Source of the DNA: a virus
Taxonomy: Duplodnaviria > Heunggongvirae > Uroviricota > Caudoviricetes
Direction: 5' to 3' (one strand)
IMG/VR virus record: IMGVR_UViG_2802429241_000006
Location: 1-16,232 of that record
DNA: 16,232 nt
Below, in pieces: positions 1,422 through 15,910 of the stretch. A program made the position numbers and the translations under genes. Under the pieces are notes generated by a model. It was given only the letters and a program-made list of their open reading frames with translations. It was not told the origin of the DNA and did no database searches. The stretch's first letter is position 1; each line of letters starts with the position of its first letter.

Positions 1422-3893
1422 TTAAAAATCAGCCTGATTCGGGATCAGTTTTTGCCAGATAGCTGAAACGTATTTTGCCTGGTAACGGGCGTCATCAAGT
1501 GCATTATGGCGCTCACCTTCGAATGGGATAGCAGTTCTGGCATCGAAGTCTATGGCTTTCCCCAGCTCAACGATTGTGCGTACATCGCGATCGTTGTGGT
1601 AGCGCCACGGGCAGGGGATCCCCTGTCGTTCGTATGAACGGCGTAAAATCACGTTGTCGAAGTTGGCTCCATTTCCCCAGACCTGGACAAAAAATTCACC
1701 GGAGTTTTCGTCGATAAATTCCCGCAATTGCAGTAGTGCATCATCTAACGGAATTTCATCGGTCAGAAGGGCAGATTGCGTCTCACGTGATTGCTTAAGC
1801 CACCATTTAATGACGTCACGATCAATGACTCCGCCAGCAGTATTCAGATCGATGGTCTTGCTAAATTCCGGCCCCATATCTCCGGTTTGTGGATCGAAAA
1901 ATATTGCGCCTATTGAGATAATCGGGGCATCGGGATTTTTTCCCATGGTTTCAAGGTCGATCATCAGATGAATCCCCGCTCTGCTGGTGGATGTGAGATT
2001 ATGATGACTGTTCGCCTTAATTAAGGGATCTGACGCCTCGCCAGTTTCACTATCGCTGGCATGATGCTGATTGCCGCCAGGGTTCTCCTTGTGCTGATGT
2101 GCAGTACCTTCCATTTCCTCCGGATCATTTTCCTGAACTTCAACCTGATTCTCTTCATCGAATGTTTCCTGGTATGTTGCGTCGCCCATCACCGCGCCAC
2201 AATCAGGGCAGCTACCGCCGCCGGTCTGACCGCAGGCGGTGCAGGCTTTTTCCGGCCCCTGTTGCGCTACTGGTTCAACCTGTTTCGTTTCTGGCTCGTT
2301 TTGTTGCGCATTTGGGCTGTTTTGTTCCGTTTTCTGGTCGTTCTGTTCCGATTCTTGCTGGTTCTGGTTTACAGAATCGCGGGTTTCAATCCCCTTCACC
2401 CATTTCGGATCATTCGGGTCGCTAATCCCTGCAACAAATTCTCCGCGAGAGGCAGCAAGCAACTTATCGGCGTCAGGCTGGCTGATATTGGCTGCCTGCA
2501 TAATTTTGTTTACTTCCTCAGCGGTAACTTTTACCGGCTCTGGTTGTGCGGTCGTGTCAGATGCACCAGTATTTTGTTGTGAACCTGAGTATGTACCGTT
2601 TTTGCGGGCAAAATATTCTTCTTTCGTGATTTCAGTAGCCCCTGCAGTCAGCGCCTTATTCAGACCAGAAAGTTTGTTTGCGCGACCATATTTTTCGCCA
2701 TCCTTATCTGTGAAGAGGAAGTAGAACGGCCCCTCACGCTCTACAGATGGTTCGACTTCCACTTTGCATTCGGTTTTTTCGTTGTCCGGAATTGCCGTTT
2801 CCACTGCATCAGTTTCTGGTACTGGCGACGAGAGAGTATCAGTTGCGCTCTGATTTGTTCCTTCATCTTCAAACACGCCCTTTGTAGTCAGGTATTCAGT
2901 AATGTATTTGTTCAGTGCCACAGGGTCTTTGTGAATGTCGATCGGACGTTCACGGACAAGGCCAAAAATAGTCTGGCGGTCGTAGCGAAGGGCATCAGGC
3001 TGTTTGCGCATTGATGCCGAGATACGCTTCCAGTCTTCGCGGTCGTTGTCGATAACTTCATTTTTTGCCCAGCGATGGATGCTGCCGTCAATGTTTCCGG
3101 CATCAATGTCACCAGGCCACAGAGCGTAGGCCAGTTCATCATCCAGTGTTTTCCATGTCTGTTTGTATTCGCGACGAATGGTGGCAGTGGCTGGGGGGAT
3201 TTTCGCTACTGAGTTTTCAGTGTTCTGCCGGTTGACTCTGGCGCAGGCAAGATCAACAACAGACGTGTATTTCCCGGTTTCTTTGCGTTCGGCTTCGCGA
3301 CGTTTTTTCCAGGTGCGTAATTCTGTCTGGATCTCAGGCCATTTTGCACCCGGCTTACATTTATGTTTAACCCACCCGATGGCGAGCAGCTTAAGCTCTG
3401 AATACATGACGTTAACTTCAGGCATTTTCATCAATGCCTCAACGATATGCCCGTCGAATGTTGCCATGTCCTCCTGCAGTAATTCCTGAGCACTAATCAC
3501 CATATCAACGGTGATGTTTTCACATGTACCGAACTTAACCAGGACCGCGTTCTGTACTTCAAGTGACAGCTTGTCAAAATTGACGTTCATCGGATCGGAT
3601 TCTGGTTCGACCGGAATAAAGGAAGCGGATTCCTCATCCCAGCGGTTTTCCTGCATATATTCGGTATCCCAGGAGTCGATAGCAGGACGGGGCATGCCGG
3701 GTTTATCCTCGCAGACAAGAAATTTATAAGCGCAGTCCTGAGCAGCCGGATATTGCTCCAGGAATTGCCAGGTAAATTTGGCACGGGCGCGGCGTTCGTC
3801 ACCGGCTTCAATGGCAGTGGCTACAGCAACTGCACCTTCTTCCTTTATTGCCTGTTCGTCCGGAATGGCGGCGCAAATAAAGACTTTACTCAT
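1422..3893 (-). CDS. Prophage exonuclease, 823 aa (often annotated exodeoxyribonuclease VIII-like), with a C-terminal DnaQ-like DEDDh 3'-5' exonuclease domain
   Basis: Long ORF with GAGG about 10 nt upstream of the ATG. The C-terminal ~190 aa carry the three DEDDh motifs: MIDLETMG (Exo I), WGNGANFD (Exo II) and HNALDDA (Exo III). An internal CTACGQTGGGSCPDCG zinc-ribbon-like motif and a Q/N/E-rich linker are present. N-terminal similarity to RecE-like proteins is from memory only. Confidence 0.7.
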   Translation of the reverse strand: MSKVFICAAIPDEQAIKEEGAVAVATAIEAGDERRARAKFTWQFLEQYPAAQDCAYKFLVCEDKPGMPRPAIDSWDTEYMQENRWDEESASFIPVEPESDPMNVNFDKLSLEVQNAVLVKFGTCENITVDMVISAQELLQEDMATFDGHIVEALMKMPEVNVMYSELKLLAIGWVKHKCKPGAKWPEIQTELRTWKKRREAERKETGKYTSVVDLACARVNRQNTENSVAKIPPATATIRREYKQTWKTLDDELAYALWPGDIDAGNIDGSIHRWAKNEVIDNDREDWKRISASMRKQPDALRYDRQTIFGLVRERPIDIHKDPVALNKYITEYLTTKGVFEDEGTNQSATDTLSSPVPETDAVETAIPDNEKTECKVEVEPSVEREGPFYFLFTDKDGEKYGRANKLSGLNKALTAGATEITKEEYFARKNGTYSGSQQNTGASDTTAQPEPVKVTAEEVNKIMQAANISQPDADKLLAASRGEFVAGISDPNDPKWVKGIETRDSVNQNQQESEQNDQKTEQNSPNAQQNEPETKQVEPVAQQGPEKACTACGQTGGGSCPDCGAVMGDATYQETFDEENQVEVQENDPEEMEGTAHQHKENPGGNQHHASDSETGEASDPLIKANSHHNLTSTSRAGIHLMIDLETMGKNPDAPIISIGAIFFDPQTGDMGPEFSKTIDLNTAGGVIDRDVIKWWLKQSRETQSALLTDEIPLDDALLQLREFIDENSGEFFVQVWGNGANFDNVILRRSYERQGIPCPWRYHNDRDVRTIVELGKAIDFDARTAIPFEGERHNALDDARYQAKYVSAIWQKLIPNQADF

Positions 3894-4238: not shown

Positions 4239-4804
4239 AATTATCTCCATTTTTACAAATGAACTTTGTTGATGCGGTGCCTGGTGCCTCCAGGTGACGT
4301 TAACCAGTTAACAATTAACGCCGGATACAGAGAATCCACCCATAACACTGTTTTTGGTTTTAACTGTTCCGCGTGCGCTTAGCCGCATTCACCGCATCAC
4401 AAAATTCACTTTAAAAAGGGCGGCAGAGCAGTCACGGAGTAAAACTGATACCGCCAAACGCCACCAGAAAATTGATAACAGAGGGCGTTGTAGCGGGGGT
4501 GTCACTTAAGCGTATGGTCAACCTGACAACCCGGTGTCCTCAACGGGGAAGGAATAACCCCGCCATACTTACCGCCGCGCCATTTCGCGGAGTGCCACAA
4601 CCGGAAGCGCACGGTCGACGAAAATTTAACGACAGGCTATCTATGAACCAGCAACCTCGCCGTGCGCTTTCGTGTTATGGTCTGACTTTTCAGGGAAATA
4701 TCCTTTCAGTAAACTGTCAGTGCCGGATGCTCACCCGTGTCCGGCGCACGCACTCCACCTCACCCGTGGAGAACTCCTTAATCACCAACCCTCAGGAGGG
4801 TGAA

Positions 4805-6216: not shown

Positions 6217-6855
6217 TTAAATATCTTGTTGAATTTTAAAGCATACGCCCAATATGCAAGATAGATCATCCAGCATAATTGAAGGGTAGCGAGGATTCGT
6301 GGGGACTAAAAGAATATCCGGCCCTTCTATCTCCAGTTTACGAATGACAGGTGTTGTGGTCCCTTTGGGTAAGGCAAGGACAATATTTCCTGGTTGTACG
6401 GTTCGATCGGGATCAACAAAAACTGTTGAACCATTTGGGATGGAAACTCCCCCACCAGATGTTGACATACTGTCACTCTCTAGAACAACTGCAAAGGTAT
6501 TGGCCGGGATTTCTCCGACAAGCTGCACACAAGAGGTTATTGAGGAATTTTTCATATAATCACTCCAGCTTGCTGCCTGCTGAAGTGATAGTAGCGGAAC
6601 CGTTTTTATCGGCGGTAAAGATAGATCAAGCGAATCACCTGTATTTAACTCTCCTCCATTAAGAAGCCAATTTTCGTTTACTTTCAATATCTTTGCCAGT
6701 GAAGTTATGTAACGCGAGGACGGCGCTCCTCCACCGTTCATCCATTGACTTACGGAGCCTTTTGATGCGCCAGTGGCATTGACAAGGTCTTTGCCCTTCA
6801 GGTTTAGCGCATGCATACGTTGGGTTATGCGTTCAGATATTGTTTGCTTGCTCAT
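6217..6855 (-). CDS. cI: Phage CI-like repressor, 212 aa (XRE-type HTH plus LexA/S24 peptidase domain)
   Basis: N-terminal HTH (GKDLVNATGASKGSVSQWMNG). C-terminal S24 signature with Ser in ESDSMS and a downstream Lys (VIRKL). Divergently placed relative to the Cro-like gene, a classic immunity-region layout. Confidence 0.85.
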   Translation of the reverse strand: MSKQTISERITQRMHALNLKGKDLVNATGASKGSVSQWMNGGGAPSSRYITSLAKILKVNENWLLNGGELNTGDSLDLSLPPIKTVPLLSLQQAASWSDYMKNSSITSCVQLVGEIPANTFAVVLESDSMSTSGGGVSIPNGSTVFVDPDRTVQPGNIVLALPKGTTTPVIRKLEIEGPDILLVPTNPRYPSIMLDDLSCILGVCFKIQQDI

Positions 6856-6888: not shown

Positions 6889-6917
6889 TTGACTTTCTTT
6901 GGTTTTGATTATTAAAC
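6889..6917 (+). promoter_or_regulatory. Candidate PR-like sigma70 promoter for the rightward early operon
   Basis: TTGACT at 6889..6894 and a TATTAA-like -10 about 15-16 bp downstream, ahead of the cro-like RBS (GGAG 6937..6940). GTTTTGATT occurs at 6856..6864 and 6902..6910, flanking the -35. Prediction by eye only. Confidence 0.3.
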
Positions 6918-6946
6918 TTTTGACGTTCAGTTTTATGGAGCGACTC

Positions 6947-7177
6947 ATGAAAAAATCAGAAGTATTAGGCTATTTTGGCGGAGTTGTTAAAACAGCCGCA
7001 GCTCTAGGAACGTCAAAAACCACAGTCAGCATGTGGGGGGAAGAGGTTCCGTGGAAATGGGCGTTGCTAATTCAGGCAGTCACTGCCGGGGCGCTCAAAT
7101 ATGAGTTACACATACCGACGGTTGTCATTCCCGGTTCTGATCATAATCCGCCTTCTAACCAAGGGGGGGATTCATGA
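6947..7177 (+). CDS. Cro-like / YdaS-family small DNA-binding regulator, 76 aa
   Basis: ATG at 6947 with GGAG 6 nt upstream. Divergent from the CI-like repressor. Small protein with an HTH-like region (KTAAALGTSKTTVSMWG). Stop overlaps the next gene start (ATGA at 7174..7177). Confidence 0.6.
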   Translation: MKKSEVLGYFGGVVKTAAALGTSKTTVSMWGEEVPWKWALLIQAVTAGALKYELHIPTVVIPGSDHNPPSNQGGDS

Positions 7178-7599
7178 AAATCAAGCATGAACACATCCGC
7201 ATGGCGATGAATGCCTGGGCGCGTCCTGATGGCGAAAAAGTTCCAGCAGCTGGAATAACCCAGGCTTATTTTGAGTTGGGTATGACGTTTCCTGAACTGT
7301 ATGACGATAGCCATCCGGAAGCCCTGGCTCGCAATACCCAGAAAATTTTCCGCTGGGTAGAGAAAGACACCCCTGATGCAGTTGAAAAAATTCAGGCGTT
7401 GTTACCAGCGATCGAAAAGGCAATGCCACCTTTGCTGGTGGCCAGAATGCGCAGCCACAGTTCAGCTTATTTTCGGGAGCTGGTGGAGACGCGGGAGCGA
7501 CTGGTGAGAGACGCTGATGATTTTGTCGCAGTGGCAATCGCCGGTTTCAATCAGATGAACCGTGGTGGCCCGGCAGGAAATGCTGTGGCAGTACATTGA
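7174..7599 (+). CDS. ydaT: YdaT-like protein, 141 aa (CII-like early regulator; annotated as toxin YdaT family in databases)
   Basis: N-terminus MKIKHEHI matches my recollection of Rac YdaT. Translationally coupled to the Cro-like gene. Sits in the position lambda cII occupies. Confidence 0.6.
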   Translation: MKIKHEHIRMAMNAWARPDGEKVPAAGITQAYFELGMTFPELYDDSHPEALARNTQKIFRWVEKDTPDAVEKIQALLPAIEKAMPPLLVARMRSHSSAYFRELVETRERLVRDADDFVAVAIAGFNQMNRGGPAGNAVAVH

Positions 7600-7670
7600 C
7601 TGACAATAGCCATATCGAATCGCTTCCGGCAACTCGTGAGTAAAAAGATTCGGTATCAGAAGAGGTGAGT

Positions 7671-8741
7671 ATGGCTAACGCCTGGCTCAGATTATGGCAT
7701 GACATGCCAAATGACCCTAAGTGGCGAACAATTGCCAGGGTGTCAGGGCAGCCAATTGCAACAGTGATGGCAGTGTATATCCACCTCCTGGTGAGCGCGT
7801 CACGAAATGTCACGCGAGGTCACATTGATGTCACGACAGAAGATTTGGCAAGTGCGCTCGACGTGACAGAAGAGGTAATTGATTCAATTTTGCAGACGAT
7901 GCAGGGGCGGGTACTTGATGGTGATTTAATCACTGGATGGGAAAAACGCCAGGTGCTGAAAGAGGACAACGGCAATATTTCGCAAACCGCAAAATCTCCT
8001 GCAGAGCGCAAGAGGGCGCAGCGAGAGAGGGAAAGAAAGCGGGAACAAAATGGCGATTGTCACGGCGCGTCACGAAATGTCACGCACATGTCACGACGAG
8101 TCACGACAGATAAAGATACAGATAAAGATACAGATCAAGAAGATCAAAACACTATGGTCCATGGCGTAAAAAACGCCACGAACCAGGCAGGGGATGTTCA
8201 GACCGTCAATCCTGGTCAGCCAGCAGGCACGACACCGGAAGCCGATTCAGCGTATGCGCTGAAAGCCGATTCGGGCGCTGTGCAGCAGGTGATGACAGCA
8301 TGGACGGAGCAATCACACCAACTGCAGCAGCCTGAAGCCGATTCCGCCATTCAGCGGGAAGCCGATCGGGTAGTCCCGGAAAACACCGGGCAGCCTGTGG
8401 GACGAGTGGATTATCCGGATGTGTTCGAACAGGTCTGGCGGGAATACCCGTTGCGTGCCGGGGCAAACCCGAAGAAATCCGCTTTCAGTGCCTGGAAGGC
8501 CAGATTACGCGAGGGGGTGCCACCAGAGGCCATGCTGGATGGCGTGAGGCGTTACGCAAGATACCTGGCGGCTACCGGGAAAACGGGAACGGAATTTGTT
8601 CAGCGAGCGACGACGTTTTTTGGACCGGACCGGAATTTTGAAAACCCCTGGTTGCTCCCGGTAAGCGGCACGAACAACCAGCGTTGTGTTAATCATATTT
8701 CTGAACCGGACACCGAAATTCCGCCTGGATTCAGAGGGTAA
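7671..8741 (+). CDS. Phage replication initiation protein (O-like replisome organiser), 356 aa
   Basis: ATG at 7671 with AGAGG 5 nt upstream (track GTG at 7665 is an alternative). N-terminal region AWLRLWHDMPNDPKWRTIA resembles replisome-organiser N-domains. The gene carries internal iteron clusters as lambda O does, and sits after the cro/cII-like genes. Confidence 0.65.
   Translation: MANAWLRLWHDMPNDPKWRTIARVSGQPIATVMAVYIHLLVSASRNVTRGHIDVTTEDLASALDVTEEVIDSILQTMQGRVLDGDLITGWEKRQVLKEDNGNISQTAKSPAERKRAQRERERKREQNGDCHGASRNVTHMSRRVTTDKDTDKDTDQEDQNTMVHGVKNATNQAGDVQTVNPGQPAGTTPEADSAYALKADSGAVQQVMTAWTEQSHQLQQPEADSAIQREADRVVPENTGQPVGRVDYPDVFEQVWREYPLRAGANPKKSAFSAWKARLREGVPPEAMLDGVRRYARYLAATGKTGTEFVQRATTFFGPDRNFENPWLLPVSGTNNQRCVNHISEPDTEIPPGFRG
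7797..7867. repeat. Iteron cluster 1: four direct GTCAC(G/A) hexamers at about 10-bp spacing plus one inverted copy
   Basis: GTCACG at 7799, 7809 and 7830, GTCACA at 7819, and CGTGAC (inverted) at 7862. Shares the 21-bp string GCGCGTCACGAAATGTCACGC with cluster 2. Confidence 0.55.
8059..8150. repeat. Iteron cluster 2 (five direct GTCACG at about 10-bp spacing) followed by an A-rich tandem repeat; candidate replication origin core
   Basis: GTCACG at 8059, 8069, 8079, 8090 and 8100. Directly followed by GATAAAGATACA x2 and GATCAAGAAGATCAAAAC (8106..8150), resembling a DNA-unwinding element. Lies inside the O-like gene as lambda ori lies inside O. Confidence 0.5.
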
Positions 8742-8778
8742 CAGATTTCAGGTCATGGGGTAATTTTCAGGAGGGCTT

Positions 8779-9123
8779 GTGGCAAAAGTTTTTACTCCCG
8801 AACTGCGGGAAGAAGTGAAGGCGCGCATTGTGGAACTGGTACGCAGAGATGGGCGAAAAACGCGTAAACAACTGGAAAATGAAACCGGGGCGACGAGACA
8901 CCTGATAGAAGTTCTGGCGAAAGAGCTGGTAGTTAGTGGCGCAGTATATGGTTCAGGACATGGAATATTTCCTTCGGAGCAGGCTCGTAAGGACTGGGGA
9001 AAAGCCCGCAAAAAAATGTCGAGAGCGGCAGTGAAAAAGAAGAGCGACCCTGACCTGATTTATTCATTGCTAGATGGCGAAATACGCCGTTACAACAGAC
9101 GACAGAACATAATTTGTCGCTAG
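8779..9123 (+). CDS. Hypothetical basic protein, 114 aa
   Basis: GTG start at 8779 with AGGAGG (8769..8774) upstream. Lys/Arg-rich. Lies directly after the O-like gene, where a helicase loader would be expected; no P-loop motif seen. Confidence 0.5.
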   Translation: MAKVFTPELREEVKARIVELVRRDGRKTRKQLENETGATRHLIEVLAKELVVSGAVYGSGHGIFPSEQARKDWGKARKKMSRAAVKKKSDPDLIYSLLDGEIRRYNRRQNIICR

Positions 9124-9331
9124 TGCCGTCAGAGCGAAGTTATGCAGCGCATACTGGAATTTTATCAGGGAAATGTTCGGTATTTATTGAAGTGACGAAA
9201 TTAAAGAGCATTAGTTCAGATATTAATTGACACTTCGATGGCACAGGGCCAGAACTAGACTGGTTGTCAGCTTTGAGCCTGGTGAACGTTGGTATCGTTA
9301 GTTTGTATTAATCAACGGAGAATAGGCCAAA

Positions 9332-9361
9332 TGACTTTTCTTTGCCTCTTTTAATTATAAT
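9332..9361 (+). promoter_or_regulatory. Candidate sigma70 promoter for the large NTPase gene
   Basis: Perfect TATAAT at 9356..9361 with TGACTT/GACTTT -35-like hexamer 17-18 bp upstream, in the AT-rich intergenic region 9124..9429. Prediction by eye. Confidence 0.3.
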
Positions 9362-9429
9362 TCAAGTTCAATTGATTACATTGAAGTACTAATGTGAGTC
9401 TGTCAAACAAATAGCTCAAGGAATAGGTC

Positions 9430-12228
9430 ATGTGGGGAAGTGAAAACAAACAAAATCTGGACGTACTGGATCCTGTGCAGTTGGCGCGTATCAAAGCGGT
9501 ACACCGGGGGTTCCTTTACCAGCATCTTTACGCTGTAGGCTGCTTACTTTTGGCGCAGAGGGCTGCTATGGACTCAGTAACTGTCGAGCTTGATGAGGAT
9601 ATTGAGCTGAAATCCAAACAGGAATGTCTCTACATTCAGGTTAAAACCCGTTCAAAACCTATTATGCCCAACGATGTGTCAGGGGCTCTTGAGCGATTTG
9701 TAAAGCTCAGAAATGAGCATACTTCGGCAAACCGCGAAGGGGTGGCTTCTTTTGTGATTATTGTAAACCAGGCGCCTGGACCGCTGCTTCAGAAGATGAT
9801 TGACGATAAAAAGCTTCCTTCTGATGTTCTCATTGTCTGGCCCCAGTCGACAGCTGGACGTCACCCGGCACTTCCGCCCGCATGGAGTACTCTGGCTGAT
9901 GCGGCCACATGGTGTATCGCAGAAGCAGAAAAGCTGAAATTTTCACTATTGTCCCCAGAATCCTTGATTTGGAAGTTAGCAGGGTTGGTTCAGCTTGCCG
10001 CCACCGGAGGCGATACCAATGGGCAACATACGTTTTTCACGGAAGAACTTACTGAACTATTTGAACAGTTGATCGTTCAGCTACAGGACTTTCCTGCGCC
10101 ACCAGCACTGTACCGTCCACAAAACGAAGAACCTTCTCTCACATCTGGTGAGCGGATCCGTATCCTTTGTGGGCTCTCAGGTGCAGGCAAGACAGCTTGG
10201 GCCGCACAGGCCGCATTACACTCCACTGCACTTTGTGCTTATTACGACACCGGTGATCTTCCCGGTCCAGCTCTGGCCAGTACGCTGGTGCGCGAGATGG
10301 TTGCTAGATTTACAGCCCGTGACCAAAACGGTTTGCGCAGGATTTTGCTCCCCGGTGCCAGTGGTTTTGAGGCTCTTAGGAGTTTTGATACCTACCTGAA
10401 AGAGCACGGTACCACCTTGGTGCTGGTTCTGGATAACGCCCATCGTGTGCCTGCGGAAAATCTACGGGATGTTCTGAATGCAACTACACATATTCGTTTT
10501 GTGCTGTTGTGCCAGCCTCACGAAAACGTTCGCGAACTGGAGGTCATGACGGGGCTACAGCGCGAGAGCCTGCAGGGATGGAATCTCGATACGGTAGCTG
10601 TCGTTGTAAACGATATCGGAGGATTTGCCACCGCCATGGGATACGAGCAGCTACGGGCTTACACTGGTGGTCTTCCCCTGTATGTAGAGAGCGCCGCAAA
10701 AATCGCCGTTTCTGATTATGAGCGTAGTGTCGATGCTCTGTGTGCTGAACTCCAGCAACAAACCCATACTGCGGAAACCGCCCAAGAAATTATTCTGTCA
10801 CGTGTATTTCAGGGATTTGAATCACTACTTCAGAGCGCGCTGGCATTGTTCAGTCTCTCTGACGTAGGGCTGAGTCGTGAAGAGATTTCTACGCTCCTAA
10901 TCAATTCGCTGAACATTTCACCAAGCAGTGCGGCTTCTTTAATTAGGAAAATGCGCGCTACTGGCACTATTGAAATTTATGGAAACCATACCCTGAAGGT
11001 ACATGATGCTGTCAGGGGGCTAGGACTGCAACATCTGGAACTGATGGATCAGGGGATATCGAACAAAGCGCTACTAGCGCTGAAAGACCTTTTAGTTGAA
11101 AGTCTTCATAATACCCGCAATACAAAACGGTTATCGTTGTTGACTCAACTTTATATTAAGCTCAATGATGTCACGACGTTGATCGAACTCTCAGGCCAAG
11201 AAATGTTTTATGAGATGGGCGTGACGGTCGACATTCTTTCAAGCCTGGAGCGTGCTGCAACATCGGACTTATTGGGACCTGTTCATAAATTCTGGGCATT
11301 GGATGGTCTTGTTTTCGTTGAGCTTAAAGACGGAATATCCGACCAGATTGCTCAGAGGTTAAACATCATGGGAGCTTTACTTGCGGAGCACAAGTTCGGT
11401 TATCAAGAAGAGATGGCCTATGCAATGAAACGAATGTTATTTTCGGCAGAAAGCAATGATGCACGAGCAGTTCAAAAGCTGGCACAGGAAGTCCGCCCCC
11501 AACTCCCAGATGAAGAACATAAACGCATCTTTGACTACAACCATGCTATTGCACTCTGGAGATTAAAAAAACTCAAGGATGCTGAAACATTAAGCTGTAA
11601 TGTTATACAAGGGTACTATTCTTTATTTGGTATCACACCTGCTGATGTCATAGGAAAAAACGCCGACGCATTATGGAAAACTATTAATCATTCCGAAAAT
11701 ATGCAGGAACACTTTAAACATATGGCTGATGCACTGGAGTTGCTGGCCAGAATTCGTGATGCGCAGGGAAAAATGTCACCATTACTGCGTATTCATTCGA
11801 TGAAGTTCTACAATCTGGCCATGGCCCCGGAATCCATGGTCAGGGTGGGCCAAGATCTGGCGGATGAGTTTGTTGCCATAAAGGATTACGACGGTGCCAA
11901 GGAAGTCATGGAGCAACATGTCCTGCCGGTTGTCAATGAGGCAGGTCTAGTACATCGACTGATTCAGGTTCGAAGCCAGTACGCAGTCATATTGGCACTA
12001 TCGGGTCAGCATAAAGCAGCTGATGTCGAAATGCAGCGCCTTGCTCCCTATATCGAAGGCCTCACAGGTGTACAGCGTCAAGAAATCCAAAATCAATCAA
12101 ATTACATCGTACAGCTTGCCCATAAAGCAGCAAAGACTAAATTAACTGAAGTTTTTGGTGCGGTCGGCCGGAATGAACAATGCCCCTGTGGCTCGGGAAT
12201 AAAGTACAAAAAATGTCACGGTGCCTGA
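9430..12228 (+). CDS. Candidate anti-phage STAND-like NTPase, 932 aa: N-terminal PD-(D/E)xK-like nuclease region, central P-loop NTPase, helical C-terminal region, terminal SEC-C-type zinc motif
   Basis: Unambiguous long ORF with AAGGA RBS. Walker A CGLSGAGKT at about aa 248-256 and Walker B-like TTLVLVLDNAH about 80 aa later. N-terminus has a GF-x-YQ motif and a D...QxK pattern (VELDEDIELKS...LYIQVKT) resembling Cap4/Mrr-type nucleases. Final residues NEQCPCGSGIKYKKCHGA match the SEC-C metal-binding motif. About 570 aa of predicted helical sequence follow the NTPase. Flanked by non-coding DNA on both sides. Confidence 0.6.
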   Translation: MWGSENKQNLDVLDPVQLARIKAVHRGFLYQHLYAVGCLLLAQRAAMDSVTVELDEDIELKSKQECLYIQVKTRSKPIMPNDVSGALERFVKLRNEHTSANREGVASFVIIVNQAPGPLLQKMIDDKKLPSDVLIVWPQSTAGRHPALPPAWSTLADAATWCIAEAEKLKFSLLSPESLIWKLAGLVQLAATGGDTNGQHTFFTEELTELFEQLIVQLQDFPAPPALYRPQNEEPSLTSGERIRILCGLSGAGKTAWAAQAALHSTALCAYYDTGDLPGPALASTLVREMVARFTARDQNGLRRILLPGASGFEALRSFDTYLKEHGTTLVLVLDNAHRVPAENLRDVLNATTHIRFVLLCQPHENVRELEVMTGLQRESLQGWNLDTVAVVVNDIGGFATAMGYEQLRAYTGGLPLYVESAAKIAVSDYERSVDALCAELQQQTHTAETAQEIILSRVFQGFESLLQSALALFSLSDVGLSREEISTLLINSLNISPSSAASLIRKMRATGTIEIYGNHTLKVHDAVRGLGLQHLELMDQGISNKALLALKDLLVESLHNTRNTKRLSLLTQLYIKLNDVTTLIELSGQEMFYEMGVTVDILSSLERAATSDLLGPVHKFWALDGLVFVELKDGISDQIAQRLNIMGALLAEHKFGYQEEMAYAMKRMLFSAESNDARAVQKLAQEVRPQLPDEEHKRIFDYNHAIALWRLKKLKDAETLSCNVIQGYYSLFGITPADVIGKNADALWKTINHSENMQEHFKHMADALELLARIRDAQGKMSPLLRIHSMKFYNLAMAPESMVRVGQDLADEFVAIKDYDGAKEVMEQHVLPVVNEAGLVHRLIQVRSQYAVILALSGQHKAADVEMQRLAPYIEGLTGVQRQEIQNQSNYIVQLAHKAAKTKLTEVFGAVGRNEQCPCGSGIKYKKCHGA

Positions 12229-12505
12229 GTCTTTGTACGACCATGCAGGCCTTATTGTCTTGCTATTGCTCTTATGGTTCGCCTTTCTGATTGATTTCAT
12301 ATTGGCGAGGTAACGGGAGTTAAGTAGAATGGCTGCGGGTGCTTGAGGCTATCTGTCTCAGGCATGAACACCAAAGGCAGATAGAGAAAAGCCCCAGTTA
12401 ACATTACGCGTCCTGCAAGACGCTTAACATTAATCTGAGGCTCAATCTATGAACGGCAAATCTAGGTTAGCCTCTTACGAGCCGAAAGGCAAGGAGAAGC
12501 AGGCT

Positions 12506-12661
12506 ATGAAGCAGCAAAAGGCGATGTTAATCGCCCTGATCGTCATCTGTTTAACCGTCATAGTGACGGCACTGGTAACGAGGAAAGACCTCTGCGAGGT
12601 ACGAATCCGAACCGGCCAGACGGAGGTCGCTGTCTTCACAGCTTACGAACCTGAGGAGTAA
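12506..12661 (+). CDS. hokD: Hok/Gef-family membrane toxin, 51 aa (HokD/RelF-like)
   Basis: Protein MKQQKAMLIALIVICLTVIVTALVTRKDLCEVRIRTGQTEVAVFTAYEPEE matches my recollection of E. coli HokD (RelF). AAGGAG RBS lies upstream of the ATG at 12506. The track ORF's 19-codon in-frame extension from 12449 is unlikely to be translated. Confidence 0.85.
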   Translation: MKQQKAMLIALIVICLTVIVTALVTRKDLCEVRIRTGQTEVAVFTAYEPEE

Positions 12662-15790: not shown

Positions 15791-15910
15791 ATGTCAGAAC
15801 ATCCAGATTTTGATGACCGTAAGCCTGATGATGAGCCCGTTGAGCGTCCTGATGAGGGGCAACCATTGAACCCTTTTTCACCGGATGATAAAAGAGAACC
15901 TATTATTTAG
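15791..15910 (+). CDS. Candidate small acidic protein, 39 aa (MSEHPDFDDRKPDDEPVERPDEGQPLNPFSPDDKREPII)
   Basis: ATG with GGGTGG upstream. Terminator hairpin lies about 50 nt downstream. Composition is less AT-biased than its surroundings. Confidence 0.3.
   Translation: MSEHPDFDDRKPDDEPVERPDEGQPLNPFSPDDKREPII

Follow-up and report, generated by a model that had tools for sequence, protein, structure and literature searches.

Iteron plasmids such as P1 (incC/incA) and F (ori2/incC) carry two arrays for a single initiator, one lying beside an unwinding element and the other acting in control, and in plasmids iterons often take part in autorepression as well as in initiation. The iterons of phage lambda are about 18-19 bp long, each bound by an O dimer, and a palindrome lies to the right of the AT-rich tract in the lambda ori. 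This origin places its iterons and AT-rich tract in the middle of gene O (PMC7466680). The oriL of Bacillus phage SPP1 consists of direct repeats together with an AT-rich DNA unwinding element (DUE) inside gene 38 and is bound by gp38 (PMC6316719). In Rac, oriJ is an active origin (PMC3945230); its position at the sequence level was not found in the literature searched. A 2025 survey states that there is no experimental work on lambdoid phages that encode an initiator without a helicase or loader, and that how they replicate is not understood (PMC12315714). That survey concerns modules with O homologues; the prophage module described here is analogous and lies outside that set.

The prophage and its initiator gene

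The window, that is the whole stretch of 16,232 nucleotides that was analysed, belongs to a Rac/lambda-like E. coli prophage in which the gene considered here sits in the initiator slot. The gene order is repressor, cro-like, ydaT-like, initiator, the last lying downstream of the cro and cII-like genes. The segment is 97.7% identical to phage Tritos, which makes virions and plaques (PMC9928086), and on the strength of this plaque-forming relative the replication module works. Of 5426 complete E. coli genomes, 1646 carry the segment at a query coverage of at least 80%. The initiator is not followed by a phage gene for a helicase or loader; the initiators of relatives are followed by a DnaC-like or a DnaB gene.

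7671 to 8741, plus strand: replication initiator gene, 356 aa, PHROG 3729
8667 to 8738, plus strand: part coding for the C-terminal tail GTNNQRCVNHISEPDTEIPPGFRG, which matches the C-terminal end of host DnaT

The protein comprises a winged-helix N-domain (about residues 1-95), a disordered linker (about 128-200), a helical C-domain (249-317) and the DnaT-like tail. The fold of the N-domain is closest to that of DnaD-NTD, and a Foldseek search gave no significant PDB match. Against the phage_rep_org_N model (TIGR01714 / PF09681; SPP1 G38P) the N-domain aligns from end to end but weakly, with 15.4 bits at a cut-off of 49.8. The N-domain family ranges over beta- and gammaproteobacteria and beyond. 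A Pfam search of the initiator returned no family at E<=0.01; at E<=0.1 there were only chance-level or winged-helix hints, and Phage_rep_O was absent even among these weak matches. The original prediction had called the gene O-like, which holds for its role and fails for homology to lambda O. By position and PHROG family the gene is an initiator, but it is not a lambda O homologue. Literature searches found no paper on the origin of this initiator family.

A PDB sequence search with the tail retrieved 6aep, 2ru8 and 9zbt, and the NCBIfam DnaT model matches it at positions 156-179 of 179. The likeness to DnaT is confined to these last ~24 residues of DnaT and does not take in its DNA-binding domain. 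The DnaT family PF17948 itself was found in 20 of 67 relatives, which have other C-modules, and is absent from the initiator of the window. The tail is proposed as a link to the host helicase-loading machinery. The available part of a paper on the DnaT preprimosome does not state the contact partner of the extreme C-terminal tail, so that recruitment is a step that we infer.

Two iteron arrays inside the gene

7795 to 7815 and 8065 to 8085, plus strand: two copies, both exact, of the 21-mer GCGCGTCACGAAATGTCACGC
7799 to 7835, plus strand: iteron cluster 1, with four GTCAC(G/A) cores in direct orientation at 7799, 7809, 7819 (GTCACA) and 7830
7862 to 7867, minus strand: inverted core, CGTGAC on the plus strand, coding for D64-V65-T66 in the turn of the helix-turn-helix
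8059 to 8105, plus strand: iteron cluster 2, with five GTCACG cores in direct orientation at 8059, 8069, 8079, 8090 and 8100, in the part coding for the disordered linker

From the letters alone it had been predicted that GTCAC(G/A) recurs at about one helical turn, with four direct copies and one inverted in the first cluster and five direct copies in the second, that an exact 21-bp string is common to both, and that SRNVT...VTT peptides are repeated in the protein. All of this was found as described, the string starting at 7795 and at 8065 and the translation containing the peptides ASRNVTRGHIDVTT and ASRNVTHMSRRVTT. The cores are spaced at 10/10/11 bp in cluster 1, which codes for the end of helix 3 and the loop of residues 46-55, and at 10/10/11/10 bp in cluster 2. 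The units are 10-11 bp long, around an asymmetric core of 6-7 bp without dyad symmetry.

The clustering of GTCAC far exceeds chance. Nine of the 15 plus-strand GTCAC[GA] sites in the 16.2-kb window fall inside the two clusters, and the 21-mer has no third copy elsewhere in it. The window was simulated 300 times with a first-order Markov model; the maximum number of GTCAC per 55 bp was 1 in 197 runs, 2 in 102 and 3 in a single run, against 5 observed. In the complete 46-kb Tritos genome these two clusters are the only places with at least three sites per 60 bp. Cluster 2 is proposed to hold the candidate core origin binding sites.

The A-rich tract and the palindrome

8106 to 8152, plus strand: A-rich, purine-rich tract, ACAGATAAAGAT x2.9 followed by GATCAAGAAGATCAAAACAC, A+T 0.70, with two GATC sites
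8155 to 8185, no strand assigned: imperfect palindrome TGGTCCATGGCG-TAAAAAA-CGCCACGAACCA with a 13-bp stem, directly 3′ of the A-rich tract

The tandem repeat and A-rich tract that had been predicted to follow cluster 2 are both present. Tandem Repeats Finder reports the A-rich 12-mer array (ACAGATAAAGAT x2.9) at 8106-8140, and the local GC content has its minimum of 0.32 at 8100-8149, compared with about 0.55 in the surroundings. Across the family a (GATAAA/GATACA/AGAAGA)n tract lies 3′ of cluster 2, where GC falls to 0.15-0.35 even in genes with an overall GC of 62-67%. The segment 8106-8152 is proposed as a candidate DNA unwinding element.

The palindrome at 8155-8185 was missing from the list of features in the original prediction. 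At the equivalent place the homologous loci L003 and L007 (CGCGCACGTGCGCG) as well as L004 carry perfect palindromes that are unrelated in sequence. The hairpin score at this position is 6.24 family-wide and 5.31 in controls (p=2e-6).

Among other signals, no DnaA box was found within one mismatch between 7500 and 8400 and no IHF consensus was seen by eye; neither kind of site lends support to a part played by host factors. On the bottom strand at 8124 the oriC 13-mer consensus occurs with two mismatches, an observation that serves as a lead only. A promoter and terminator scan gave counts no higher than those of shuffled sequences, and a minus-strand "promoter" made of iteron sequence and a "terminator" at 8185-8155 were dismissed as functional evidence. 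Rfam has no match in the region and an RNA element is therefore unsupported.

Sites within a gene could also work in autoregulation, in place of initiation or in addition to it. A reading in which the repeats are operators only, where the initiator or a different regulator of the phage binds to block or tune transcription of the gene, and in which replication starts at another place, draws on their location within a transcribed gene, the cro-side promoter region lying upstream of them, and on the dual role that plasmid iterons often have. An operator, however, needs neither an adjoining A-rich tract that stays low in GC even within GC-rich genes nor a neighbouring palindrome, and the complete Tritos genome offers no other iteron cluster to act as the origin. 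As the layout also fits experimentally defined origins, a purely regulatory role is improbable.

Homologues and mosaic junctions

Homologues whose DNA does not contain the repeats had been named in the original prediction as grounds for giving it up, and a search of the relatives found the opposite. GTCAC is kept at gene positions 129/139/149/160 and at about 387-430 in ~25 species-level homologues, whose locus GC spans 0.34 to 0.69, and most of these GTCAC-type genes also have the inverted core at gene position 193. Other lineages use other cores (GTAACG, CGAACGC, ACTACG or AACGCC), usually with one core common to both clusters. Independent analyses of the two regions yielded an identical or overlapping core in 30 of the 37 loci with periodic repeats in both. 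Related elements in related hosts may differ in this respect; for example, GTCACG is found in an Erwinia element (L030) and GTAACG in elements of Pantoea (L026) and Enterobacter (L029). In the GTAACG lineages all copies have changed in concert, and the change is silent for Val.

The copy number in relatives is 4 or 6 for cluster 1 and 3 to 5 for cluster 2. A periodic cluster occupies the cluster 2 position in 44 of the 50 family loci analysed, and cluster 1 was not detected in several relatives. Because cluster 2 is far more widespread in the family than cluster 1, the jobs of the two clusters may differ. Across the family the last cluster 1 copy and the first cluster 2 copy lie 219-247 bp apart, a distance that does not correspond to a constant number of helical turns, so no phasing between the clusters is claimed.

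Homology to relatives breaks at about 8128 and about 8146, within the A-rich tract, which is proposed to be a mosaic junction between N- and C-modules as well as a melting site. In relatives with the N-module alone in common, the iterons are retained and divergence sets in directly behind the A-rich repeat. Where only the C-module is shared, both the N-domain and the repeats are different, e.g., GGGGCTTC in Stx phage 75/02. With the breakpoints in the A-rich tract, the N-domain and the repeats are therefore inherited together. These comparisons show that the repeats change in concert with the initiator lineage.

This pattern bears on whether the repeats are sites for a host protein or for another phage function such as packaging or recombination. 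The encoded initiator is a presumed binder, and a hint of host factors comes from the GATC sites of the A-rich tract and from its weak resemblance to the oriC 13-mer. Sites for a host protein would, however, hardly differ between the related Erwinia, Pantoea and Enterobacter elements, the cores follow the N-domain across mosaic junctions, and the terminase genes of Tritos are at the opposite end of its genome. Binding by something other than the initiator is very unlikely on these grounds.

Constraint on the repeats at the DNA level

The iteron cores occupy all three reading frames and encode the residue pairs Ser-Arg, Val-Thr, Gly-His and Cys-His. Among 20 species-level homologues the normalised synonymous entropy is 0.09 at iteron codons and 0.83 at other conserved codons (Mann-Whitney p=3.8e-6). 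The usage of single codons is close to uniform within the iterons (Val47 GTC 21/21, Thr48 ACG 21/21, Gly50 GGT 21/21, His51 CAC 20/20, Val54 GTC 21/21, Ser44 TCA 20/21), and Val65 of the inverted core is GTG in 18/18. In contrast, invariant residues outside the iterons use 4-6 codons each. Within the disordered linker, invariance is limited to residues that the cores encode, and in L003 and L004 the cluster 2 cores are invariant and their spacers variable. Use of three frames and frozen synonymous sites show a constraint at the DNA level; the repeats are selected as DNA, not as protein. The recurring SRNVT...VTT peptides and the exact 21-mer could suggest a repeated peptide motif or a recent internal coding duplication without a function in DNA, but this is extremely unlikely given cores read in three frames, synonymous sites that are nearly invariant while other conserved codons vary freely, the concerted Val-silent change of every copy in GTAACG lineages, the position of cluster 2 in a predicted disordered linker conserved only at core-encoded residues, and control codons of the same genes that rule out a general codon bias.

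A model for the probable origin

The region from about 7795 to 8185 is likely to be a prophage replication origin embedded in the gene of its own initiator, the repeats very probably representing its binding sites and melting region. The features by which an iteron-type origin is recognised occur together, i.e., direct repeats arrayed at intervals of about one helical turn, an AT-rich tract directly adjoining it, a location inside the gene of an initiator with a DNA-binding domain, and co-variation and co-inheritance of the repeats with that domain. The central reading of the original prediction, a candidate origin of iterons and AT-rich sequence within an initiator gene and with a lambda-like logic, has passed every computational test applied to it.

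In the proposed mechanism, the winged-helix N-domain of the initiator would bind the GTCACG cores, and since these lie one helical turn apart the bound proteins would stack along a single face of the helix. At 8059-8105 the array of five sites adjoins the A-rich segment at 8106-8152, whose low stability would let it melt, while the C-domain and DnaT-like tail would recruit the host helicase-loading machinery. The four-plus-one array at 7799-7867 would bind the same initiator and would most likely be an auxiliary or control site, acting through looping, cooperative loading or autoregulation. We infer the binding by the initiator, the melting at the A-rich tract, the recruitment of host factors and the separate role of cluster 1.

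A wider synthesis can be offered tentatively. The prophage would possess a lambdoid module with an initiator and without a helicase or loader gene, whose initiator binds iterons in its own gene and melts the (GATAAA)n tract, and whose tail, as a mimic of DnaT, feeds the origin into host loading of the PriA/DnaT type (or through DnaB-DnaC). The protein would have its most conserved residues imposed on it by the origin that it reads, and this overlapping code would evolve in concert in the two arrays in steps of 21 bp, equal to two iterons, seven codons and two helical turns.

With a defined origin, marker frequency could be used to measure how far prophages are induced, and replicons could be constructed. 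Synonymous recoding could destroy the iterons without changing the protein and would be a clean test. Together with plaque-forming Tritos, a locus with a DnaT-like tail makes a concrete system for the question of initiator-only replication. It would also be a case of overlapping codes in which an origin fixes the most conserved residues of its own reader.

Comparison with known origins

The lambda ori and oriStx (933W/P27) resemble the prophage locus in the order of their parts along transcription, with initiator-binding repeats (putative in the prophage) ahead of an AT-rich tract, both in the middle of the gene, where the linker is encoded (PMC7466680). The number of iterons varies among relatives in the lambda/oriStx group (4 or 6), as it does in the prophage family. 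The palindrome to the right of the AT-rich tract in the lambda ori has its counterpart at 8155-8185. The prophage units of 10-11 bp with an asymmetric core are, however, not iterons of the 18-19 bp lambda type. The protein lacks an O-homologous N-domain, no P-type loader gene follows, and the repeats form two clusters separated by about 230 bp, of which one lies within the region coding for the DNA-binding domain. The Eru classification of replication modules in non-lambdoid Stx phages (PMC8044961) was also considered; it omits this initiator protein and does not discuss origins.

In K-12 Rac, with oriJ and ydaU, the same genomic slot is used and YdaU ends in the same ...IPPGFRG tail. The YdaU linker has short repeats (GATGTTCAA x5) and an A-rich tract coding for DKD, akin to the prophage initiator. 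YdaU differs in its DUF1376 N-domain, in its repeats and in the DnaC-like ydaV downstream; it was rejected as the same initiator, the BLASTP matches being limited to the C-terminal tail and a low-complexity linker stretch. In contrast to the P1 and F plasmids, where units of about 19-22 bp are arrayed on either side of the rep gene, both prophage arrays lie inside the coding sequence.

SPP1 oriL likewise lies in the gene of a replisome organiser (G38P); the prophage N-domain aligns weakly with phage_rep_org_N, at a score below the family threshold (15.4 vs 49.8 bits). SPP1 has its own loader gp39, helicase gp40 and a second origin, oriR, whereas the prophage encodes neither a loader nor a helicase, and the rest of the genome holds no further cluster. 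The best explanation of the locus would be an iteron-plus-DUE origin of known design, analogous to the lambda ori and to SPP1 oriL.

Repeat arrays and the candidate origin

The repeat segment inside the initiator gene is very probably the replication origin of the prophage, at which initiator binding, DNA melting and firing would take place. Both iteron clusters, the inverted copy, the shared 21-mer and the A-rich tandem repeat are present as the original prediction stated, and a palindrome absent from it adjoins the A-rich tract.

7671-8741 (+), initiator ORF, 356 codons, containing both repeat clusters
7799, 7809, 7819, 7830 (+), cluster 1, direct GTCAC(G/A) cores, spacings 10/10/11 bp
7862, inverted core copy CGTGAC beside cluster 1
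8059, 8069, 8079, 8090, 8100 (+), cluster 2, direct GTCAC(G/A) cores, spacings 10/10/11/10 bp
7795 and 8065, exact 21-mer GCGCGTCACGAAATGTCACGC, at these two sites only
8106-8140, tandem repeat ACAGATAAAGAT, 2.9 copies
8155-8185, imperfect palindrome TGGTCCATGGCG-TAAAAAA-CGCCACGAACCA

The two clusters hold 9 of the 15 plus-strand GTCAC(G/A) sites of the window, and GTCAC reaches five copies per 55 bp against a maximum of three in 300 first-order Markov simulations. GC content has a minimum of 0.32 at 8100-8149. Cluster 2 and the A-rich tract would form the origin core, with cluster 1 as an auxiliary or control array that may be bound by the same initiator, by analogy with P1 and F, which carry second iteron sets. 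The k-mer clustering scan also found TGATGA hexamers bunched at 15811-15840, with four copies in 55 bp.

Prophage setting

A lambdoid E. coli prophage of Rac/Qin-like type makes up the window, with its genes and RNAs in the order below.

Integrase, first in the order
1422-3893 (-), long exonuclease gene
4418-4469 (-), DicF sRNA (Rfam match of 76 bits, above the gathering score)
6217-6855 (-), cI-like repressor
6899-7177, cro
7174-7599, cII/YdaT-like gene, directly before the initiator gene
DUF977/Ren-like gene, next after the initiator gene
9430-12228 (+), nuclease-ATPase ORF, 932 aa, whose N-terminus is Cap4-nuclease/LmuA-like, with an AAA ATPase domain and, C-terminally, a SEC-C motif
12337-12511 (+), sok antitoxin RNA of a hok/sok module (Rfam match of 108 bits, above the gathering score)
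DUF968 gene, then antiterminator Q, at the end of the order

A 21-bp tandem repeat (2289-2363; 3.5 copies, 71% matches) lies within the exonuclease gene. The nuclease-ATPase ORF resembles an anti-phage defence or moron gene; in Tritos, a plaque-forming E. coli phage, the corresponding place does not contain it and is occupied by a different, minus-strand gene. Positions 7600-8800 are 97.7% identical to Tritos and several further E. coli phages. Of 5426 complete E. coli genomes, 1646 carry the segment at a coverage of at least 80%. In strain LF82, Tritos resides as prophage 3; its induction is spontaneous, and it forms virions and has been plaque-purified on K-12 (PMC9928086), so the replication module is functional.

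The initiator protein

The gene had been called O-like. Membership of its product in PHROG 3729, 'replication initiation protein' (E 2.8e-256), upholds a replication initiator, but the implied homology to lambda O does not stand. Pfam searches with the protein returned no family at E<=0.01, and the alignment of the N-terminus with TIGR01714 (phage replisome organiser N-domain) runs from end to end at a score far under threshold. No published experiment on this initiator family was found. In an AlphaFold2 model for which 67 relatives were used, the N-domain is confident (pLDDT >90) and consists of three helices (2-14, 16-25, 29-45), a loop (46-55), two further helices (56-63, 67-77) and a beta hairpin. 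Disorder is predicted for residues ~128-200, and a helical C-domain (249-317) comes next. Cluster 1 encodes the end of helix 3 and the subsequent loop, the inverted core copy the turn joining the two helix-turn-helix helices, and cluster 2, the A-rich tract and the palindrome all encode the disordered linker.

Repeat cores across the family

A one-genome-per-species scan yielded 53 loci encoding initiator relatives (L-numbers). Roughly 25 beta- and gammaproteobacterial species have GTCAC at gene positions 129, 139, 149 and 160, usually with the inverted copy at gene position 193 and with 3 to 5 further copies at ~380-430; the flanking 5-6 kb per locus contain merely a handful of GTCAC. Homologues without repeats at the DNA level had been named as evidence against an origin, but these species keep GTCAC, and distant relatives lacking it have different cores, likewise of 10-bp periodicity, in the same two places.

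Cores of distant relatives
GTAACG: L026, L029, L034, L037, L046, L047
CGAACG(C): L033, L036, L038-L045, L051
ACTACG: L049, L056
AACGCC: L057

Among the 50 loci analysed, the cluster 2 region has a periodic repeat in 44, and a periodic cluster 1 was not detected in 13, including L038, L049, L050, L056 and L057. When the best periodic 5-mer was determined independently in the two regions, the same or an overlapping core emerged in 30 of the 37 loci periodic in both; most of the others give CGAAC versus AACGC, two parts of CGAACGC. In GTAACG lineages the change from GTC to GTA is silent for Val, yet it is found in every copy, and no copies occupy the frame in which TAA would arise.

In L003 and L004, close relatives from E. 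coli, invariant cluster 2 cores are separated by 4-5-bp spacers that vary. Iteron number shifts by steps of 21 bp, each the length of two iterons, of seven codons and of two helical turns: cluster 1 of L003, L004 and L007 carries a 21-bp insertion (~2700-2720 in L003), with a gain of two iterons in L003 and L004, and window cluster 2 has a 21-bp (HMSRRVT) insertion at 8086-8106 relative to most of the family. This is the smallest step that keeps reading frame and repeat period together.

Relatives sharing only the 5′ part (H34, H35; L003, L004) keep their homology from the start codon up to ~8128, within the ACAGATAAAGAT array, and continue with an unrelated C-domain (DnaT-like, PF17948) and then a P-like gene. 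Those sharing only the 3′ part (H31-H33, from ~8146, and Stx phages 75/02 and POCJ13) carry unrelated N-domains and, after the initiator, a DnaC-like gene; phage 75/02 has repeats of its own, two copies of GGGGCTTC with an inverted form ~250 bp downstream, then (CAGGAA)n. Because homology breaks at ~8128 and ~8146, the A-rich tract is the exchange point, and the proposed unwinding element would thus also be the recombination joint of initiator modules. Judged by these boundaries, the N-domain and the repeats travel as a single module. The less favoured reading of the repeats as sites for a host factor, or for some other function, is hard to square with lineage-specific cores co-inherited with the N-domain.

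The A-rich tract and palindrome

Past cluster 2, the coding strand of the tract is purine-rich; its A+T content is 0.70, and it carries two GATC sites. In nearly all family loci the lowest-GC 40-mer of the gene directly follows cluster 2, as (GATAAA)n, (GATACA)n or (AGAAGA)n, with a GC content of 0.15-0.35 even in genes of 62-67% GC. Were the repeats an autoregulatory operator only, also a weaker reading, this conserved tract would be left unexplained; autoregulation may well accompany initiation. Hairpins are somewhat enriched in the 110 bp past the tract (mean best score 6.24 versus 5.31 in 373 control segments, p=2e-6), and the palindromes CGCGCACGTGCGCG (L003/L007) and CGCGCATGCGCG (L004) are unrelated in sequence to that of the window. 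Many relatives (L016, L018, L020, L026, L029, L041) have a GC-rich CCCCC...GGGGG hairpin ~40-60 bp past the tract that coincides with a PPxPxRG peptide, and the selected feature may be either the DNA hairpin or the peptide.

Selection on DNA or on peptide

The cores have frame offsets of 2, 0, 1, 0 in cluster 1 and 1, 2, 0, 2, 0 in cluster 2 and encode Ser-Arg, Val-Thr, Gly-His and Cys-His pairs. Because they are read in all three frames, a single peptide motif cannot account for the repeats. Codons were compared over the 20 of the 53 loci that are of GTCAC type, whose first 80 codons align gap-free, and at core-encoded residues the codon itself is fixed.

Codons at core-encoded residues (residue, codon, count)
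Ser44, TCA, 20/21
Val47, GTC, 21/21
Thr48, ACG, 21/21
Gly50, GGT, 21/21
His51, CAC, 20/20
Val54, GTC, 21/21
Thr55, ACG, 20/21
Val65, GTG, 18/18

The control residues Arg7, Leu8, Pro13, Pro16, Arg19, Thr20, Pro28, Val32, Gly79 and Arg80 are equally invariant, yet are encoded by 3 to 6 codons. For nine iteron codons the normalised synonymous entropy is 0.09, versus 0.83 for 31 other conserved codons (Mann-Whitney p=3.8e-6), and codon bias is ruled out as the cause because locus GC ranges from 0.34 to 0.69 across hosts. In protein alignments the family-invariant residues of the loop and disordered linker are exactly the core-encoded ones. The codon data exclude a peptide repeat. The DNA element dictates the protein sequence rather than the reverse, bearing out the earlier proposal that the repeats impose peptide sequence on the protein.

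Helicase recruitment

After the initiator (positions 8742-9430) the window has neither a helicase nor a loader gene, and the annotation of the complete Tritos genome lists none; other family members have a DnaC-like (IstB_IS21) or DnaB gene directly 3′ of the initiator. The last ~24 residues, ...VNHISEPDTEIPPGFRG (8667-8738), match the extreme C-terminus of host DnaT, and this tail is common to the initiator and K-12 Rac YdaU. The tail hints at a connection with the PriA/PriB/DnaT or DnaB-DnaC machinery of the host, a recruitment step that is hypothetical because the preprimosome paper, in the part available, defines no contact for the DnaT tail.

The K-12 Rac gene ydaU (in L059), an unrelated initiator gene, has its own short repeats at 3472-3563, five copies of GATGTTCAA, ahead of an A-rich tract coding for DKD; its product has the same IPPGFRG tail. 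These repeats and tract suggest that oriJ shares the in-gene layout.

Comparison with known origins

Iterons and an AT-rich tract inside an initiator gene are a textbook type of origin. Less ordinary are the two arrays, one of them within the DNA-binding-domain coding region, the core that changes in concert in both, an origin that would fix the best-conserved residues of its own reader, and a module with a DnaT-like tail at its end and no loader gene. In E. coli the element is very common, and a plaque-forming phage makes it testable. In a 2025 survey, 34 of 314 lambdoid phages encode an O homologue alone, without helicase or loader; none of these initiator-only modules had been studied experimentally and their replication type was not understood (PMC12315714). 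Their module is analogous to the present one, but the window initiator differs in not being an O homologue. The candidate origin, transcribed from the early rightward promoter region, has helically phased lineage-specific sites, then a low-stability tract and then a palindrome in the linker-coding part of the initiator gene, the same layout as in lambda ori (PMC7466680) and in SPP1 oriL within gene 38 (PMC6316719).
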